Source: a virus (taxonomy: Duplodnaviria > Heunggongvirae > Uroviricota > Caudoviricetes). From it: 34,670 bases of DNA. The position numbers were made by a program, and so were the translations under genes. Under the pieces are notes generated by a model. The model saw only the letters and a program-made list of their open reading frames with translations. It made no database searches and was not told where the DNA came from. Positions 6,989 through 27,753 of this stretch are shown here, piece after piece. Every line of letters begins with the position of its first letter. The stretch's first letter is position 1. The stretch is from IMG/VR virus record IMGVR_UViG_2563366941_000005, one strand, 5' to 3'.

Positions 6989-7133
6989 TTTGCTGCTCCT
7001 CATCATATCGACCCTGCAAGGTCGGTTAGTTTCTCCACAAAACAGAGAAGAACACCTGCGGTGGCAGCCGCCCGGATGGATTGGGTTATGAGCCCGTCGT
7101 CCGGTGATGCTCTTCTCTGTTTTGTAAAAAGAG

Positions 7134-7170
7134 CGGTACCAGCCGGAAGTAAGTGTACAAACTGGTACCG
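7134..7170 (-). terminator. Candidate leader hairpin / intrinsic terminator in the early-left leader
   Basis: 9-bp inverted repeat CGGTACCAG / CTGGTACCG with a 19-nt loop; on the minus strand it is followed by CTCTTTTTAC. Confidence 0.3.
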
Positions 7171-7658
7171 CCAAAGCAGTGGCTGTTGTGGTGCCGGTGC
7201 TGATCTCCGGCTTGCGGTTATTTCAGACTCTCACGGGCGTTTAATTGCCCCGCCGAACAGCTCTTTTCCGCAATAGCTGCAATGTCTTTCGCGCATCAGC
7301 CTGCGCATTCACCACAACGCTGAGAGCATTGCCGGTGTCCGAATCGAACGGACCTTTTCCCTGCCCAACCCTCCCATCTGAATGGGACTGTCTGGAATTG
7401 AACCAGCACTTATGCCTTGCTCGTCAATGCTCTCATCGTTGCGTCCTGGTCTCTTCCCAGGCGTCAAACCGAATCGCCACGCTGGTTAGGCGTCTTATCA
7501 GCATCATCATTGACTTGCACATTCCGGCTACCTGGTTTGTTTGCCCGAGCAAGGAGTGGATTGTCCCCTTTAACGTCCCCAGACCGCTAACGACGCATGT
7601 GCCATACGCCGTGTTACAACCAAATTTTGTTTAATCTTGCCTGTGGCATGTTTCTTTT

Positions 7659-7692
7659 AGATACATTATGTATCTCAAGGGTACATTGTCAA
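7659..7692 (-). promoter_or_regulatory. Candidate pL promoter with overlapping OL operator
   Basis: Minus strand -35 TTGACA (7692-7687), 16-bp spacer, -10 CATAAT (7670-7665); perfect 17-bp palindrome AGATACATTATGTATCT (7659-7675) and operator-like ATGTATC-N5-GGTACAT (7668-7686) overlap it. Confidence 0.55.
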
Positions 7693-7693
7693 G

Positions 7694-7719
7694 TATAAAA
7701 AAACCTGCCGAAGCAGGTT
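7694..7719 (-). terminator. Rho-independent terminator downstream of cI
   Basis: Minus-strand stem AACCTGC, loop TTCG, stem GCAGGTT, then a 7-U tract, immediately 3-prime of the cI stop at 7731. Confidence 0.75.
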
Positions 7720-7730
7720 ATAAATATTGA

Positions 7731-8405
7731 TTAGGCCTTTATTTTGTATCTTCTTGGTTTTCCTGAGAAAATTACTGTACCAATTATAGAGCAATTACCG
7801 TTAATCTTAATGTAAGGCTCAGGCCAGTTTGGGTTTAATGCTTTGAGATAACGCTGTGTTCCATCTTCTATCAATCGCTTGAAGGTGGTTTCGCCTGTAT
7901 CGTGCATCAATGCAATAACGTCGTCACCGTGGCAGGCAGGGACTTCGGGATCAACAAAAATCATGTCTCCCGGGCGGTACTCATCAATCATTGAATCACC
8001 AATCACCCGCAAGATATAAGTCATTTCGCCACAGGGTACAGGGCAGGGATAAGTTTCTGCTGTGCTCAAATCAACCTCAGAATAGCCAACTTCTTTCCAT
8101 GCTCCGGCCTGTACCCATGATATGACAGGGACTAACGTTATTTGTTTGTTAGTAATTGAAACATCAGGTTTTTTTGTGATGTTTGTTGTCTGGTGTTCTT
8201 GATCAAGCCATCCGACAGGCAGGTCGAAACATTTTTCGATGTGCCGTGCCATGCTGTCACCGATATTTTTAGTAGCACCATCTCCCATAAACCTGCTGGT
8301 CTGGGTTGGCTCGCGATCAATCATGGTGGCAAAGGAAGAATTCCCGCCAACACCATCTCTCAGTTTTCTGGCGTTAGACCGCCGGATGTCATGGACTGTT
8401 TTCAT
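7731..8405 (-). CDS. cI: CI-like prophage repressor (N-terminal HTH, C-terminal S24 LexA-like peptidase domain)
   Basis: 224-aa ORF; C-terminal VIGDSM...GD..FVD...K signature of S24 autopeptidase; divergent from the cro-like gene; no SD upstream, consistent with a leaderless transcript. Confidence 0.85.
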   Translation of the reverse strand: MKTVHDIRRSNARKLRDGVGGNSSFATMIDREPTQTSRFMGDGATKNIGDSMARHIEKCFDLPVGWLDQEHQTTNITKKPDVSITNKQITLVPVISWVQAGAWKEVGYSEVDLSTAETYPCPVPCGEMTYILRVIGDSMIDEYRPGDMIFVDPEVPACHGDDVIALMHDTGETTFKRLIEDGTQRYLKALNPNWPEPYIKINGNCSIIGTVIFSGKPRRYKIKA

Positions 8406-8421
8406 AACGAAATTAAAACCT

Positions 8422-8440
8422 TTGTACCGATAGGGTACAA
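8422..8440. promoter_or_regulatory. Operator, perfect 7-5-7 inverted repeat TTGTACC-gatag-GGTACAA
   Basis: Perfect palindrome in the cI/cro intergenic region; the same half-site family recurs at 8472-8490 and 7668-7686. Confidence 0.7.
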
Positions 8441-8445
8441 GTATC

Positions 8446-8490
8446 TTGAAGGTTCATCTCAATCATGTAATATGTATATCGGAGGTACAT
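8446..8490 (+). promoter_or_regulatory. Candidate pR promoter with overlapping operator
   Basis: -35 TTGAAG (8446-8451), 16-bp spacer, -10 TAATAT (8468-8473); operator ATGTATA-tcgga-GGTACAT (8472-8490) overlaps the -10 and the cro SD. Confidence 0.5.
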
Positions 8491-8495
8491 ATTGT

Positions 8496-8696
8496 ATGAA
8501 AGCGTATTGGGACTCTTTAACCAAAGAACAGCAGGGCGAGTTGGCCGGAAAAGTTGGCTCAACACCAGGCTACTTACGGCTGGTTTTCAATGGTTATAAA
8601 AAAGCCAGTTTTGTGCTGGCTAAAAAACTTGAGCAATGCACGTCAGGTGCAATTACGAAATCTGACTTAAGACCGGATATCTATCCGAAAGATTAA
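8496..8696 (+). CDS. Cro-like HTH regulator (YdaS-like)
   Basis: 66-aa ORF starting at ATG 8496 with GGAGG SD; divergent from cI; small HTH protein. Confidence 0.65.
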   Translation: MKAYWDSLTKEQQGELAGKVGSTPGYLRLVFNGYKKASFVLAKKLEQCTSGAITKSDLRPDIYPKD

Positions 8697-8727
8697 CAGA
8701 ACACCTTCAATTTTTAACCACAGAACG

Positions 8728-9297
8728 ATGAGGCTAACCGTGGGTAAGCATCACTGGAAAGTAGAAAAACAGCCTGAGTGGTACGTGAAAGCTGTCAGAA
8801 AAACTATCGCGGCGTTGCCGGGGGGTTACGCTGAAGCTGCTGAGTGGCTGGATGTAACAGAGAACGCATTATTCAACCGCCTTCGTGCAGATGGCGATCA
8901 GATTTTCCCGCTGGGATGGGCAATGGTTTTACAGCGTGCGGCTGGCACTCACTACATTGCGGATGCTGTCGCACAGTCTGCTGGTGGGGTGTTCGTATCG
9001 CTTCCTGAAATTGAGGCAGTAGAGAACGCCGATATAAACCAGCGCCTGCTGGAAGTCATTGAACAGATCGGCAGTTATTCCAGACAGATTCGTTCAGCAA
9101 TCGAAGACGGTGTAGTGGAACCGCATGAGAAGACAGCAATTAACGACGAACTGTATCTTTCAATTTCGAAGCTCCAGGAGCATGCAGCACTGGTCTACAA
9201 AATCTTCTGCGCTCCAGAAAAGAGTAACGCCCGCGAGTGTGCAGCTCCGGGCGTCGTGGCGTCGATTGCTTCTGGTTGTGGAGAAACTAACGCATGA
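8728..9297 (+). CDS. CII-like / YdaT-like regulatory protein
   Basis: 189-aa ORF directly after cro; N-terminal segment AEWLDVTENALFNRLRADGDQIFPLGWAMVL resembles the CII HTH region; start may instead be GTG at 8740. Confidence 0.55.
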   Translation: MRLTVGKHHWKVEKQPEWYVKAVRKTIAALPGGYAEAAEWLDVTENALFNRLRADGDQIFPLGWAMVLQRAAGTHYIADAVAQSAGGVFVSLPEIEAVENADINQRLLEVIEQIGSYSRQIRSAIEDGVVEPHEKTAINDELYLSISKLQEHAALVYKIFCAPEKSNARECAAPGVVASIASGCGETNA

Positions 9298-9622: not shown

Positions 9623-9893
9623 TTCTGCAATTCCGGGACGTTACACTGTTCAGGCACCTTATAAAGCGGGTGCCGGGATTGGCGTCCTGAAATTCGCACA
9701 TGCGCATAACCGCGCTTCAGCGGTTTTTTTGCGCACGTTTCCTCACATCCAAATTATGGTGGGGCGTGCAGGGGCATCGAAAGATGCGCCGGGGTCATGT
9801 GCGACCGGTTACGCCAACCCTGTACGTCTCACCACCTCTGTGATTGGCGTCCCATGTGGTGAGTTTTCAAAATTCGCACATGAGGATGTCACT

Positions 9894-10439
9894 ATGGCAA
9901 CCACCCCTACCCAAACTCACCCTAAAATTGATGTTATCCATGGGAAGGCTGTTACCTCTTCTTTGGCCGTTGCCGAATATTTCTGCAAGCAGCACAAAAA
10001 CGTTATTCAAAAAATCCAGACGCTTGAGTGCTCTGTTGAATTCACTGAGCTGAATTTTCAGCCCAGTGATTACACCGATTGCACAGGCCGCAAACTCCCT
10101 TGTTACCAAATCACCCGCGACGGTTTTGCGTTTCTTGCCATGGGCTTCACGGGGAAACGTGCTGCCCGGTTCAAAGAGGCATACATCAATGCCTTTAACC
10201 AGATGGAGAAACAGCTTTCAAATCCCTCTGTACTGAGCGACGTTGCACATAACGCCAGCGTTCTCTATTCCTACATTTCATCAATTCATCAGGTCTGGCT
10301 GCAGCAGCTTTATCCCATGTTGGCAAAAGCCGAATCCCCGCTGGCTGTAAGTCTGTATGACCGCATCAACGACGCGGCGCTACTGGCCAGTCTCATAAAT
10401 TTGTCGCTGAACCCTTCAGAGGTAAGGGGGCGCAAATGA
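9894..10439 (+). CDS. Rha-family phage regulatory protein
   Basis: Rha-like core VTSSLAVAEYFCKQHKNVIQKIQTL ... ITRDGFAFLAMGFTGKRAARFKEAYINAFNQME; internal ATG at 9894 has GAGGA SD; the upstream 600 bp of the tracked 381-aa ORF is not Rha-like. Confidence 0.75.
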   Translation: MATTPTQTHPKIDVIHGKAVTSSLAVAEYFCKQHKNVIQKIQTLECSVEFTELNFQPSDYTDCTGRKLPCYQITRDGFAFLAMGFTGKRAARFKEAYINAFNQMEKQLSNPSVLSDVAHNASVLYSYISSIHQVWLQQLYPMLAKAESPLAVSLYDRINDAALLASLINLSLNPSEVRGRK

Positions 10440-18521: not shown

Positions 18522-18597
18522 GGCCCTTTAGCTCAGTGGTGAGAGCGAGCGACTCATAATCGCCAGGTCGCTGGTTCAAATCCAGCAAGGGCCACCA
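18522..18597 (+). tRNA. tRNA with CAU anticodon (Ile2-lysidine type, ileX/ileZ-like; could be scored as Met)
   Basis: 76-nt cloverleaf: acceptor GGCCCTT/AAGGGCC, D arm GCTC/GAGC, anticodon loop CTCATAA, T loop TTCAAAT, encoded CCA. Confidence 0.85.
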
Positions 18598-18604
18598 TCA
18601 CATA

Positions 18605-18681
18605 CCGCCATTAGCTCATCAGGAAAGAGCGCCAGCCTTCGAAGCTGGTTGCGCGGAGTTCGGGTCCCCGAAGGCGGTTCA
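18605..18681 (+). tRNA. tRNA-Arg-like (anticodon UCG), noncanonical
   Basis: D arm GCTC/GAGC, anticodon stem CCAGC/GCTGG with loop CTTCGAA, T loop TTCGGGT; one acceptor and one T-stem mismatch; 3-prime end TCA instead of CCA. Confidence 0.55.
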
Positions 18682-18694
18682 TTATCTGTATCCT

Positions 18695-18771
18695 GCGTTG
18701 TTAGCTCAGCCGGACAGAGCAATTGCCTTCTAAGCAATCGGTCACTGGTTCGAATACAGTAGAACGCGCCA
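18695..18771 (+). tRNA. tRNA-Arg (anticodon UCU)
   Basis: Acceptor GCGTTGT, D arm GCTC/GAGC, anticodon stem ATTGC/GCAAT with loop CTTCTAA, T loop TTCGAAT, encoded CCA; one acceptor mismatch and a G/A at the T-stem closing pair. Confidence 0.65.
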
Positions 18772-18786
18772 CACTTATTTTCCCTG

Positions 18787-18810
18787 GCTCGCTTTTGCGG
18801 GCTTTTTTTT
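18787..18810 (+). terminator. Rho-independent terminator after the tRNA cluster
   Basis: Stem GCTCGC, loop TTTT, stem GCGGGC (one G-U pair), then T8. Confidence 0.7.
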
Positions 18811-19245
18811 AAATGTCTCACAATTCAGGCGGTTGACTGTTGTCTGGTTTGCGGGGAGTTTGTTAAAAGAAACTGGCATGGTGAATCCCCCTGTGCGGAG
18901 GGGCAATCAGCGAGTAGGTATATGGGATAATCGCGGATTCAGGTGCTGGTACTGAATTCACCGGGAGGCACCCGGCACCATGCAATGGCACATAGTGCCA
19001 CTCTCCAGCCCCTCTCCGGAGGGGCTTTCTTGTGGGCAAAAAAAAGCCCGAGTGGGTTCGGGCAACAGCATGAGATATACATTTTTATAATCGAATGGAT
19101 TTTAACCAGAATTCATAAGGCTGCGCAACTGCGCGGTCTTTTTCGAATTGCGGGCTGTCGTCTCTCTTCTGCCATTGTCCTGTAACTTCCGGACTTCAGC
19201 CCGCTCCTTATTTTACTCACAATATTATCCCGGCCGGGAGGATTC

Positions 19246-21207
19246 ATGGCATTTAAACACTATGACGTGGTCAGGGCGGCATCGCCGTCAGACCTTGCGA
19301 AACGACTGACACAAAAACTGAAGGAGGGGTGGCAGCCATTTGGCAGTCCGGTGGCCATCACGCCTTATACCCTGATGCAGGCCATTGCGGCGGAAGGTGA
19401 TGTCACCACACCTGTGGTGGTGAAGCCGTCGGATGGAGAAGGCGCAGTTATCAGCACTACCAGCAACCCGGAGTATTACTTTGTTGTTGCCCTGGCCGGG
19501 CAGTCAAACGGTATGGCGTATGGTGAAGGGCTTCCGCTGCCGGAGACATATGACCGTCCGGACCCGCGTATTAAACAGCTGGCGCGTCGCAGCACTGTCA
19601 CGCCGGGTGGTGCGTCCTGTAACTACAATGACATTATTCCTGCGGACCACTGCCTGCATGATGTTCAGGATTTGAGTAAGTTTTCACACCCGAAAGCCAG
19701 CGCAGCTCAGTATGGATGCGTGGGGCAGGGATTACATATCGCGAAGAAATTGTTGTCGTTTATTCCGGCGAATGCCGGTATTCTTCTGGTTCCGTGCTGC
19801 CGTGGTGGTTCTGCATTTTTGGCGGGCGATGAAGGTACCTTCAGCGAATCCACCGGCGCAAGCGAGACCTCGGCACGCTGGGGTGTAGATAAGCCACTGT
19901 ACAAGGACCTGCTTACCCGTACTCAGGCCGCACTGAAGGCCAACCCTAAAAATATTCTGCTTGCAGTGGTCTGGATGCAGGGCGAGTTTGATTTGAAACA
20001 GGGTGCATACGCCACTCAGCCGGGGCTGTTTGATTCCATGGTGGAAAAATATCGTTCTGACCTGTCGGAATTCGGAGGTCAGTGTCTCGGGGGCTCTCCG
20101 TCATCAGTTCCCTGGATTTGTGGCGACACGACCTACTACTGGAAGCAGACTTATTCTTCGCAATACGATGCGGTGTATGGTGCATATAAGACGAAATCCG
20201 CAAAAAAAATCTTCTTTGTGCCGTTTATGACGGATGAAAACGGGCGAAATGTGGGTACCAACGAGCCGTCAGAAGATCCGGATGTTGCGGATATTGGGTA
20301 TTACGGAGCCGGTGGTCGAACGGACGCCAAAACCTGGACGACGGCTGACCGTAAAACGCATTTTGGATCATGGGCACGTCGTGGGATTATTTCCGACCGT
20401 CTGGCAACGGCGATTCTTGTGCATGCCGGGAGAACCGCTGAATTCATTACCGGAAAACAGCCTGATACGGTGAAGCCCACCGGACCTTCCGGTGAAGGTA
20501 CGGAGAGAGAGCCGGAAGGTCCGGTCAGTAACCGAACCCTGATGAGTCTGCTGGCGTCCGGCGAAGACCTGGCATCACAGGGCTGGCGCTATTATCACAA
20601 ACCGGCGAGCGGAGACAATGTTAACAAAAACATTGCTGAAGCGGTGGTCAGTGATGCGGGGGCTACGGGAGGTAAGGCCCTGCAACTGAATAAACCGGAA
20701 AACCACATCTGGTTTCTGGAGCATGATGCAGCCGGGCAGGGGGCAGAGTTGCTGAAGAAAGGAGGACGTGTGAGCGTACGGTTTAAGTTGCCGGGTTCAC
20801 TGGTGCCGAATCAGTTTGCCCTGGGCATTTACTGGCAGTTGTCGTCCCTGCCGGAGGGAGTGACGCTGGCAGAGGAAGGCAACGACATGCTGATGTCCTT
20901 CTTCCTGCAGACGGATGCGACGAACCTGAACGCGATGCACCACAAGAAGCCGAATGCGAAGCTGGATACGTTCGGGGTCTTTGATAACGGATGGCACACA
21001 CTGGCTTTTGAGTTTGCCGGAAACAACAGCATTCAGGTGACGCCGGTACTGGATGAGAAACGGGGGACGCCGTTCACACTGGTGAAATCTCCGGCATCAG
21101 GGGCGGCGGACAAACTGCAACTGACAGGCATATCAAAGGCGGCGACATATACGCTGCTGATTGACAGTGTGAAGGTGGAAGTGAACAACGCGGATGCCGC
21201 GGCATGA
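19246..21207 (+). CDS. Prophage sialate O-acetylesterase (NanS-p-like; SGNH/SASA hydrolase)
   Basis: 653-aa ORF; GQSN catalytic motif (VALAGQSNGMAYGEG); GGGAGG SD; located between the tRNAs and the lysis genes as in Stx-phage-like prophages. Confidence 0.75.
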   Translation: MAFKHYDVVRAASPSDLAKRLTQKLKEGWQPFGSPVAITPYTLMQAIAAEGDVTTPVVVKPSDGEGAVISTTSNPEYYFVVALAGQSNGMAYGEGLPLPETYDRPDPRIKQLARRSTVTPGGASCNYNDIIPADHCLHDVQDLSKFSHPKASAAQYGCVGQGLHIAKKLLSFIPANAGILLVPCCRGGSAFLAGDEGTFSESTGASETSARWGVDKPLYKDLLTRTQAALKANPKNILLAVVWMQGEFDLKQGAYATQPGLFDSMVEKYRSDLSEFGGQCLGGSPSSVPWICGDTTYYWKQTYSSQYDAVYGAYKTKSAKKIFFVPFMTDENGRNVGTNEPSEDPDVADIGYYGAGGRTDAKTWTTADRKTHFGSWARRGIISDRLATAILVHAGRTAEFITGKQPDTVKPTGPSGEGTEREPEGPVSNRTLMSLLASGEDLASQGWRYYHKPASGDNVNKNIAEAVVSDAGATGGKALQLNKPENHIWFLEHDAAGQGAELLKKGGRVSVRFKLPGSLVPNQFALGIYWQLSSLPEGVTLAEEGNDMLMSFFLQTDATNLNAMHHKKPNAKLDTFGVFDNGWHTLAFEFAGNNSIQVTPVLDEKRGTPFTLVKSPASGAADKLQLTGISKAATYTLLIDSVKVEVNNADAAA

Positions 21208-25853: not shown

Positions 25854-27753
25854 TATGATGAGTGCTGTCACAACAGCATTACAGCCCCTGATAAGGGCAT
25901 TGCCGGTGACGCCAGTTGAATGGGCTGATCAAAATTATTATCTGCCTAAAGAATCTTCATATGGTGAGGGAGAATGGAAAACGCTGCCGTTCCAGATCGC
26001 CATCATGAACAGCATGGGGAATGATCAGATCCGGACTGTTAATCTGATTAAATCTGCCCGTGTTGGCTATACAAAGATGTTGCTGGGAGTCGCCGGGTAT
26101 TTTATTGAGCATAAATCCCGAAACAGTCTGCTTTTTCAGCCCACGGATTCTGCCGCTGAAGATTTTATGAAGTCTCACGTGGAGGCGACGATTCGCGATG
26201 TTCCCTGCCTGAAAAAACTTTCTCCCTGGCTGGGACGTAAACATCGTGATAATACCATCACGCTGAAACGCTTTTCATCGGGTGTGGGCTTCTGGTGCCT
26301 GGGCGGCGCTGCCGCCAAAAACTACCGTGAAAAATCCGTGGACGTGGTCTGCTATGACGAACTTTCCTCGTTCGAGCCGGATGTCGAAAAAGAGGGCTCG
26401 CCAACCCTGCTGGGGGATAAGCGTATTGAGGGCTCGGTATGGCCAAAATCCATTCGCGGCTCGACGCCTAAAATAAAAGGCTCCTGCCAGATCGAAAAAG
26501 CGGCCAACGAGTCGGCGCATTTCATGCGTTTTTATGTGCCCTGCCCGCACTGTGGGGAGGCGCAGTATCTGAAATTTGGCGATGAGTCCACGCCTTTTGG
26601 CCTTAAATGGGAGAAGGACAGCCCCGAAAGCGTTTTCTACCTCTGTGAACATCATGGCTGCGTGATCCATCAGTCTGAGCTTGACCAGAGCAACGGGCGG
26701 TGGATCTGTGAAAACACGGGGATGTGGACCCGTGACGGTCTGACGTTTTTCAGCGCCGCGGATAATGAAATTCCGCCGCCGCGCTCCATCACGTTCCATA
26801 TCTGGACGGCGTACAGTCCGTTCACCACCTGGGTACAGATAGTCTATGACTGGCTGGATGCACTGAAAGATCCCAACGGCCTGAAAACCTTTGTGAACAC
26901 CACGCTGGGCGAGACCTGGGAAGAGGCCGTGGGCGAAAAACTCGATCACCAGGTACTGATGGATAAGGTCGTGCATTACACGGCGGCGGTGCCAGCCCGG
27001 GTGGTTTATCTGACGGCGGGCATTGACTCGCAGCGAAACCGTTTTGAGATGTATGTCTGGGGATGGGCTCCGGGAGAGGAAGCCTTTCTGGTGGATAAAA
27101 TCATCATTATGGGGCGTCCCGATGAGGAAGAGACGCTGTTACGTGTGGATGTGGCGATCAACAAAAAATACCGCCATGCAGACGGAACCGAAATGACCAT
27201 TTCCCGTGTCTGCTGGGACACCGGGGGGATCGATGGCGAAATTGTCTATCAGAGGTCAAAAAAACACGGTGTTTTCCGGGTGCTGCCGGTAAAAGGTGCA
27301 TCTGTTTATGGCAAGCCGGTGATCACCATGCCAAAAACCCGCAATCAGCGGGGCGTGTATCTGTGCGAAGTGGGGACGGACACCGCAAAAGAAATTCTCT
27401 ATGCCCGTATGAAAGCCGATCCCACGCCTGCGGATGAAGCCACGTCGTATGCCATCCGTTTTCCTGATGATCCGGAGATTTTTTCGCAGACAGAGGCGCA
27501 GCAACTGGTGGCGGAAGAGCTTGTGGAGAAGTGGGAAAAAGGAAAGATGCGTCTGCTGTGGGATAACAAAAAGCGGCGTAACGAAGCGCTGGACTGCCTG
27601 GTGTATGCCTACGCGGCATTACGTGTGTCCGTGCAACGCTGGCAGCTTGATCTGGCTGTACTGGCAAAATCCCGGGAAGAAGAGACGACCCGGCCAACCC
27701 TTAAAGAACTGGCAGCGAAGCTGTCCGGAGGAGTGAATGGTTACAGTCGCTGA
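25825..27753 (+). CDS. A: Terminase large subunit (lambda gpA-like)
   Basis: Near-colinear similarity to lambda gpA (VEWADQNYYLPKES, KSARVGYTKMLLGV, FWCLGGAAAKNYREKSVDV, HIWTAYSPFTTWVQIV); start at ATG 25825 overlapping the Nu1 end as in lambda. Confidence 0.9.
   Translation: MNISEQQLNNMMSAVTTALQPLIRALPVTPVEWADQNYYLPKESSYGEGEWKTLPFQIAIMNSMGNDQIRTVNLIKSARVGYTKMLLGVAGYFIEHKSRNSLLFQPTDSAAEDFMKSHVEATIRDVPCLKKLSPWLGRKHRDNTITLKRFSSGVGFWCLGGAAAKNYREKSVDVVCYDELSSFEPDVEKEGSPTLLGDKRIEGSVWPKSIRGSTPKIKGSCQIEKAANESAHFMRFYVPCPHCGEAQYLKFGDESTPFGLKWEKDSPESVFYLCEHHGCVIHQSELDQSNGRWICENTGMWTRDGLTFFSAADNEIPPPRSITFHIWTAYSPFTTWVQIVYDWLDALKDPNGLKTFVNTTLGETWEEAVGEKLDHQVLMDKVVHYTAAVPARVVYLTAGIDSQRNRFEMYVWGWAPGEEAFLVDKIIIMGRPDEEETLLRVDVAINKKYRHADGTEMTISRVCWDTGGIDGEIVYQRSKKHGVFRVLPVKGASVYGKPVITMPKTRNQRGVYLCEVGTDTAKEILYARMKADPTPADEATSYAIRFPDDPEIFSQTEAQQLVAEELVEKWEKGKMRLLWDNKKRRNEALDCLVYAYAALRVSVQRWQLDLAVLAKSREEETTRPTLKELAAKLSGGVNGYSR

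Follow-up and report, generated by a model that had tools for sequence, protein, structure and literature searches.

The immunity region of this prophage raises the question of which DNA sites its repressor recognizes, and whether these sites define an immunity of their own. The window, that is, the whole stretch of DNA analyzed (34,670 nucleotides; record IMGVR_UViG_2563366941_000005, Caudoviricetes), had previously been interpreted from its letters alone. That sequence-only reading proposed that three palindromes with 7-bp arms and a 5-bp spacer, situated on both sides of a leaderless cI gene, are the repressor operators and set the immunity specificity of the prophage. The analysis described here indicates that the segment from about 7635 to 8700 is very probably a lambdoid prophage immunity cassette of the e14/SfV type, whose CI/Cro switch is built on five sites. 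This immunity type (ymfK-ymfT) is already on record, and the switch is an ordinary lambda-style prophage on/off switch that represents no new kind of system.

The regulatory genes of the region are the following:

7731..8405, minus strand: cI repressor gene (ymfK/cohE type), 224 aa, with a domain for DNA binding at its N terminus and an S24 autopeptidase domain
8496..8696, plus strand: cro (ymfT/croE type, YdaS-like HTH), 66 aa, assigned from Pfam and RefSeq
8728..9297, plus strand: cII-like regulator gene in the ymfL position (Pfam Phage_CP76, 3.5e-15)

The cI and cro genes are divergent and 90 bp apart, which is the gene layout of a lambdoid switch. Their RefSeq names in E. coli are ymfK for the former and "ymfT: YdaS family helix-turn-helix protein" for the latter. 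The CI protein matches Pfam Peptidase_S24 (1.5e-26) and the structural matches of its C-terminal domain are lambda CI, UmuD and LexA. In the alignment of CI proteins, the Ala-Gly site (A100-G101) and the Ser/Lys dyad (S138 and K176) are invariant. These residues, together with the domain, predict a repressor capable of autocleavage, as is the S24 autopeptidase of a lambdoid switch. The N-terminal 73 residues match the chain called "Repressor" of PDB 5d50 (E about 9e-4), and distant homologues of this domain are found in Variovorax, Cupriavidus and Giesbergeria (n = 3). The Cro protein matches Pfam HTH_3 and also YdaS_toxin, the latter with 25.1 bits and thus below the 30-bit cut-off, and shows weak structure matches to the Cro entries 8co2 and 8c7k.

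The promoters and the terminator that accompany these genes are:

7665..7692, minus strand: pL, with -35 TTGACA (7692..7687), a 16-nt spacer and -10 CATAAT (7670..7665)
7702..7719, minus strand: intrinsic terminator, a stem-loop followed by a T-run, which ends cI transcripts right before the -35 of pL
8412..8440, minus strand: pRM, with -35 TTGTAC (8440..8435), a 17-nt spacer and -10 TTTAAT (8417..8412)
8446..8473, plus strand: pR, with -35 TTGAAG (8446-8451), a 16-nt spacer and -10 TAATAT (8468-8473)

The leftward near-consensus promoter of the sequence-only reading is confirmed as pL, which matches the consensus at 11 of 12 positions, is conserved among relatives and has its predicted +1 near 7658. 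The rightward promoter that was proposed next to it is also present. This promoter, pR, is weaker (8 of 12 positions, under the threshold of the promoter scanner), with a predicted +1 near 8480. Its position is kept in all the relatives, in which the -10 column reads CATAAT or TATAAT. The terminator stem is retained in relatives with another sequence (CCTGC/GCAGG versus CCCGC/GCGGG). When 7000-8800 was scanned against Rfam at E ≤ 1, the sole match was to STnc50, over this terminator and at chance level.

Five sites of a single operator family are distributed over these three promoters:

7648..7666: OL2, ATGTTTC-TTTTA-GATACAT, 15.6 bits, covering the -10 and predicted +1 of pL
7668..7686: OL1, ATGTATC-TCAAG-GGTACAT, 24.9 bits, the top site of the window, filling the pL spacer and overlapping the -10
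8422..8440: operator in the OR3 position, TTGTACC-GATAG-GGTACAA, a perfect palindrome, 22.5 bits, between the -35 and -10 of pRM
8439..8457: OR2, AAGTATC-TTGAA-GGTTCAT, 12.4 bits, covering the -35 of pR
8472..8490: OR1, ATGTATA-TCGGA-GGTACAT, 20.8 bits, overlapping the -10 and +1 of pR

Thus, from left to right, the region consists of OL2-OL1 over pL, the terminator, cI, pRM, OR3-OR2-OR1, and pR-cro. The three 19-mers proposed earlier are all where they had been placed: the perfect palindrome TTGTACC-N5-GGTACAA is found at 8422-8440, and its two degenerate copies overlap the -10 elements of pR (OR1) and pL (OL1). The count of three was, however, too low, since OL2 and OR2 had been missed. The consensus of the family is ATGTAYC-N5-GRTACAT (19 bp), in which two GTAC cores are 11 bp, i.e., one helical turn, apart. 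OL2 and OL1 are separated by 1 bp (20 bp from centre to centre). OR2 shares 2 bp with OR3, and the centres of the two are 17 bp (about 1.6 turns) apart, so that they lie on roughly opposite faces of the helix. OR1 contains the Shine-Dalgarno (SD) sequence of cro, GGAGG (8481-8485).

The signal of these sites stands above chance because of their recurrence and clustering, not because of a lone perfect palindrome. In fact, the window contains seven perfect 7-N5-7 palindromes versus 2.2 ± 1.6 expected, and a single one is unremarkable; the other six (at 330, 10998, 13687, 22194, 32506 and 34148) are unrelated to the operator family. By contrast, TGTAYC-N5-GRTACA with up to two mismatches has 11 matches in the window versus 2.5 expected, a number that none of 100 shuffles reached, and five of these 11 form two clusters flanking cI. 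Exact half-sites amount to 35 in the 34.7 kb, six of them inside 151 bp. A symmetric weight matrix, trained exclusively on the OR3, OR1 and OL1 sites of relatives from other genera and then scanned over the window, recovered the five sites with 12.4 to 24.9 bits. All of them are inside the immunity region; the next best score anywhere else in the prophage was 4.6 bits, and therefore neither further sites of the family nor a third OL site exceed this value. The matrix null (maximum score per window) has a mean of 7.1 and a 95th percentile of 13.5 bits; OL2 (15.6) is above this percentile and OR2 (12.4) slightly below it.

The conservation of the sites was analyzed in 25 non-redundant cI-cro regions, which comprise the window, two diverged phages (Hafnia phage yong2 and Edwardsiella phage EPP-1) and 22 distinct genomic loci collected via a cI alignment. 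Their CI proteins are 61-100% identical to that of the window, and their hosts include Escherichia, Klebsiella, Hafnia, Edwardsiella, Serratia, Proteus and Symbiopectobacterium, among others. The alignment is gap-free from OR3 to OR1. The half-site columns of OR3 and OL1 carry 1.5-2.0 bits, compared with 0.2-0.9 bits in the columns of the 5-bp spacers. For instance, TGTACC and GGTACAA of OR3 are invariant or nearly so across about 20 different spacer sequences, and the OL1 half-sites are invariant in all 25 loci around a variable spacer. OR1 is also kept in every locus. With respect to OR2, 24 of the 25 loci keep the right half GGTTCAT, and most relatives have AAGTACC as the left half. In the case of OL2, the right half GGTACAT, including the junction GGTACAT-T-ATGTAYC, is found in 22-23 of the 25; the left half is weak and absent from some relatives. 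No compensatory changes of the kind expected from RNA hairpins were detected between the arms in the 25 aligned loci. Conserved arms that do not covary, together with variable spacers, therefore denote a protein-binding site and not an RNA hairpin. The conservation of the half-sites, their overlap with the promoters and their absence elsewhere in the prophage support, at the sequence level, the proposal that the palindromes are operators of the repressor.

The sequence-only reading had also stated that cI lacks an SD sequence and would be translated from a leaderless mRNA, as from lambda pRM. In the window, the stretch 3-11 nt upstream of the cI start codon (ATG at 8405) is devoid of an SD core, and 6 nt separate the -10 of pRM from a +1 that is the A of this ATG. 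The start codon is correctly assigned, since the N-terminal residues of CI are conserved from M1. Among the 25 loci, 23 have no SD core before cI, whereas cro is preceded by GGAGG in all of them. A TnnAAT hexamer precedes the cI ATG by exactly 6 nt in 19 loci and by 4-9 nt in the rest, and the bases in between vary freely. Experimental evidence comes from e14, in which a class I transcription start site (TSS) coincides with the first base of ymfK, with a leader length of 0 (Romero et al. 2014, PMC4681348, text and Table S3). Between the cI ATG and the edge of OR3, -10 included, e14 and the window have identical sequences, and a leaderless cI is therefore experimentally established for pRM. Among the starts listed in the supplement of that work, none is close to the pR and pL positions predicted for e14, both of which are expected to be repressed in the lysogen.

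How many of the five sites are real operators, and of which molecule, can be weighed on these data. It might be argued that only the three strong palindromes are operators, one per promoter, OR2 being conserved as the -35 of pR plus spacer, and OL2 as the -10/+1 of pL. The score of OR2 below the null percentile speaks for this, as does the fact that the TTG of OR2 belongs to the -35, which accounts for part of its conservation; the left half of OL2, weak and missing in several relatives, points in the same direction. However, of the nearly invariant GGTTCAT only the first G falls within the -35 hexamer, AAGTAYC is likewise preserved, OL2 stands out window-wide and preserves its right half, and both sites occupy lambda-like positions. 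We thus consider a switch of one site per promoter distinctly unlikely. Much less probable still, to the point of being hardly tenable, is that the palindromes function at the RNA level, as hairpins such as a terminator or attenuator of a leftward transcript across 8440..8422. The scanner does call this minus-strand stretch terminator-like (a 7-bp stem followed by AGGTTTTAAT), but the arms are conserved as sequence, as described above, and the half-site recurs at five places with a fixed core spacing of 11 bp, some of them devoid of any hairpin plus T-run. In addition, the TSS of e14 ymfK is downstream of 8440..8422 on the cI strand, so that the lysogenic transcript excludes the hairpin.

A different possibility is that the sites are recognized by the host LexA protein and not by the phage repressor, as proposed for e14. 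The genes of e14 are inducible by DNA damage (SOS), and a 2024 study found that its induction depends on LexA cleavage and attributed the induction to weak LexA boxes (PMC11228462). Nevertheless, the LexA SOS box is a 16-mer of the form CTGT-N8-ACAG, while the sites described here are TGTAYC-N5-GRTACA, that is, TGT-N11-ACA with GTAC cores. The motif accompanies the cI/cro pair in different genera and is found nowhere else in the prophage. Moreover, the Ala-Gly/Ser/Lys autocleavage apparatus predicted in the repressor could explain the SOS dependence without LexA binding, so recognition by LexA appears extremely improbable. The predicted autocleavage of YmfK, in conjunction with operators of its own over pR and pL, would explain the SOS dependence of e14 more directly.

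The preferred reading is hence that of five sites of one family, which cover pR, pRM and pL. According to the mechanism that we propose, the SOS-cleavable CI (YmfK type) and Cro (YmfT type) would bind the 19-bp sites as dimers. In the lysogen, CI at OR1/OR2 and at OL1/OL2 would keep pR and pL off, and CI at OR2 would probably activate the weak pRM in a lambda-like manner. OR3 would be filled by excess CI, or first by Cro, turning pRM off. The transcript from pRM starts at the A of the cI AUG, so that cI is translated from a leaderless mRNA. We infer the pairing of proteins with sites and its order, the activation from OR2, cooperativity, and the starts of pR and pL.

This switch resembles that of lambda in its divergent cI and cro genes, in three OR operators over pR and pRM and further operators over pL downstream of cI, in a repressor with an S24 autocleavage domain, in a leaderless cI expressed from pRM, and in a middle operator placed at about -42/-43 of pRM. 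Relative to the pRM +1 (8405), the centres of OR3, OR2 and OR1 are at -26, -43 and -76, whereas those of lambda are at -19, -42 and -66 of the cI ATG (NC_001416 coordinates). The location of OR2, whose centre is also at about -32 of pR, would by analogy be that of the lambda site from which pRM is activated. There are also clear differences. The sites are 19-bp 7-5-7 palindromes with half-site TGTAYC and not 17-mers as in lambda, and OL is composed of two sites instead of three; three operators per side are a particularity of lambda and not a requirement for lambdoid switches in general. The OR2-OR3 centres are 17 bp apart (23 in lambda) and those of OR1-OR2 33 bp (24 in lambda), and OR2 and OR3 face roughly opposite sides of the helix. 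OL is only about 0.8 kb from OR, without rex genes. Cro has a YdaS-type HTH, and the N-terminal domain of CI is not detectably lambda-like. Furthermore, the best palindrome is found at the OR3 position, the reverse of the affinity order of lambda CI, and therefore the order of occupancy may differ from that of lambda.

A related system is the PaaR2/YdaS/YdaT switch of CP-933P, described by Jurenas et al. 2021 (PMC8630535). Its repressor mRNA is leaderless by 5' RACE and its Cro binds pRM first. Both switches share a YdaS-family Cro, a CII analogue downstream, a leaderless repressor mRNA, a divergent intergenic region (97 bp in CP-933P) and a pL with related operators (PMC8630535). On the other hand, PaaR2 is a protein of about 15 kDa for which no S24 domain is mentioned in the passages considered here, and the CP-933P operators are four 18-bp palindromes with the repeat consensus GTTTAGTAA (PMC8630535). 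The window switch is not of the PaaR2 type, since its repressor carries an S24 domain and its half-site differs from GTTTAGTAA. A scan for the CII site of the YdaT type, TTGATT-N6-AATCAA, gave no match in the immunity region. By analogy with this system, a Cro that first occupies the perfect OR3 would fit the order in which the CP-933P Cro binds pRM.

The genes and the intergenic DNA of the window are those of e14 and of phages SfV, SfIV, cdtI and Ayreon and the Stx2c-converting phages, and the switch itself does not differ among them. In cI, cro and the operator DNA, the window is nearly identical to e14 and SfV, which makes it a member of this immunity type. Phages cdtI, SfV, SfIV, Ayreon and 2H10, as well as a number of Stx2c-converting phages, carry an almost identical region; between 8150 and 8700 the identity is 100% with cdtI, 99.8% with the Stx2c phages and 99.1% with SfV. 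Moreover, 1324 of 5426 complete E. coli genomes (24%) match at 90% or more, with the genes annotated as ymfK/ymfT. The OR region is 100% identical to those of SfV and cdtI and differs from that of e14 at six positions: the outermost OR3 base (n = 1), the OR3 spacer (n = 2), and one each in the interval from OR2 to the -10, the OR1 spacer and the OR1 left half. The latter is the sole e14 difference in a core half-site position, and there e14 is nearer to the consensus. Across relatives of the e14/SfV type, OL1, pL and the terminator are unchanged or almost unchanged.

The OR operators had, in fact, been annotated before. The GenBank record of SfV (U82619) contains a "putative operator region" at 26377-26445, which corresponds to window positions 8422-8490; mapped via the cI coordinates, the limits of this feature are the first base of OR3 and the last base of OR1. 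Searches of the accessible literature returned no YmfK or YmfT binding data or sites, and a gSELEX review only lists YmfK and CroE as regulators of e14. The operators are thus still putative, though not new.

The window departs from these relatives at the borders of the cassette. The homology shared with SfV and e14 begins at about 7635, 13 bp to the left of OL2, and that shared with Stx2a phages carrying other immunity regions stops at 7631, which situates a mosaic junction at 7631-7635. Since this junction is left of OL2, OL2 travels with the cassette. To its left, the pL leader of the window (7175-7647, minus strand) is a mosaic piece other than that of SfV and e14, of about 470 nt, with no convincing ORF. 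Within it, 7565-7625 is about 96% identical to P1/P7 DNA beside trnI, and 7312-7532 is about 88% identical to a stretch of Salmonella phage SPC32H annotated as tRNA-Arg. Neither ARAGORN nor Rfam detected a tRNA in the leader, in which T-arm-like motifs are present; it may be a decayed tRNA cluster. The possibility that 7565-7625 is a P1 c4-like RNA was discarded, because the P1 match lies beside trnI and not in immI, and a true C4 is located at 9752-9839. An inverted repeat in the pL leader at 7133-7172 (GCGGTACCAG-N20-CTGGTACCGC, then a T-run on the minus strand) is terminator-like. Its GTAC cores resemble operator half-sites, but with the wrong spacing, and the operator matrix gives no match there.

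On the right side, the window carries a cdtI-like isrK/C4/Rha module where SfV has orf37. This segment (9654-10439, plus strand) comprises isrK at 9654-9730 (62 bits) and the C4 antisense RNA at 9752-9839 (75 bits). Both RNAs lie inside a mechanically called ORF, the C-terminal part of which is a regulator of the Rha type (Phage_pRha, aa 221-306), and the cdtI record has a "putative antirepressor" at this position. Directly to the right of the cII-like gene, the segment looks like an RNA-controlled antirepressor module similar to P1 immI. If this module is real, CI and its operators are not the sole determinant of immunity. Thus, the statement that the sites set the immunity specificity of the prophage is incomplete. 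Farther to the right, positions 18522-19093 contain tRNA-Met, tRNA-Arg and tRNA-Arg, followed by STnc100 (138 bits) and AsxR on the opposite strand, which is the arrangement of Stx phages downstream of Q. There is apparently no space for stx genes ahead of the 653-aa ORF at 19246-21207.

Certain details of the operators could have a meaning beyond the basic switch. The outermost base pair separates OL1 and OR1 (A...T) from OR3 (n...A), and the "defect" of OR2, GGTTCA instead of GGTACA, is nearly invariant (24 of 25 loci). Together with a perfect OR3, the sole fully symmetric site, located inside pRM and abutting OR2 on roughly the opposite helix face, these features could encode the discrimination between CI and Cro and a strongly autorepressed, low-level repressor, unlike the lambda logic. 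We put this forward tentatively, as an idea that is rather doubtful. If true, it would mean an uncharacterised operator code for a repressor found in roughly one in four complete E. coli genomes and in Stx2c and serotype-converting phages.

This immunity type is very common, being that of e14 of E. coli K-12, Stx2c-converting phages, the cdtI phage, and the Shigella serotype-converting phages SfV and SfIV. The five-site map and the cross-genus consensus can be used to predict homo-immune prophages, and the operator map supplies targets for footprinting and reporter assays. For e14 and Stx2c prophages, the sequence features suggest that SOS induction may be read more simply through autocleavage of YmfK than through weak LexA boxes.
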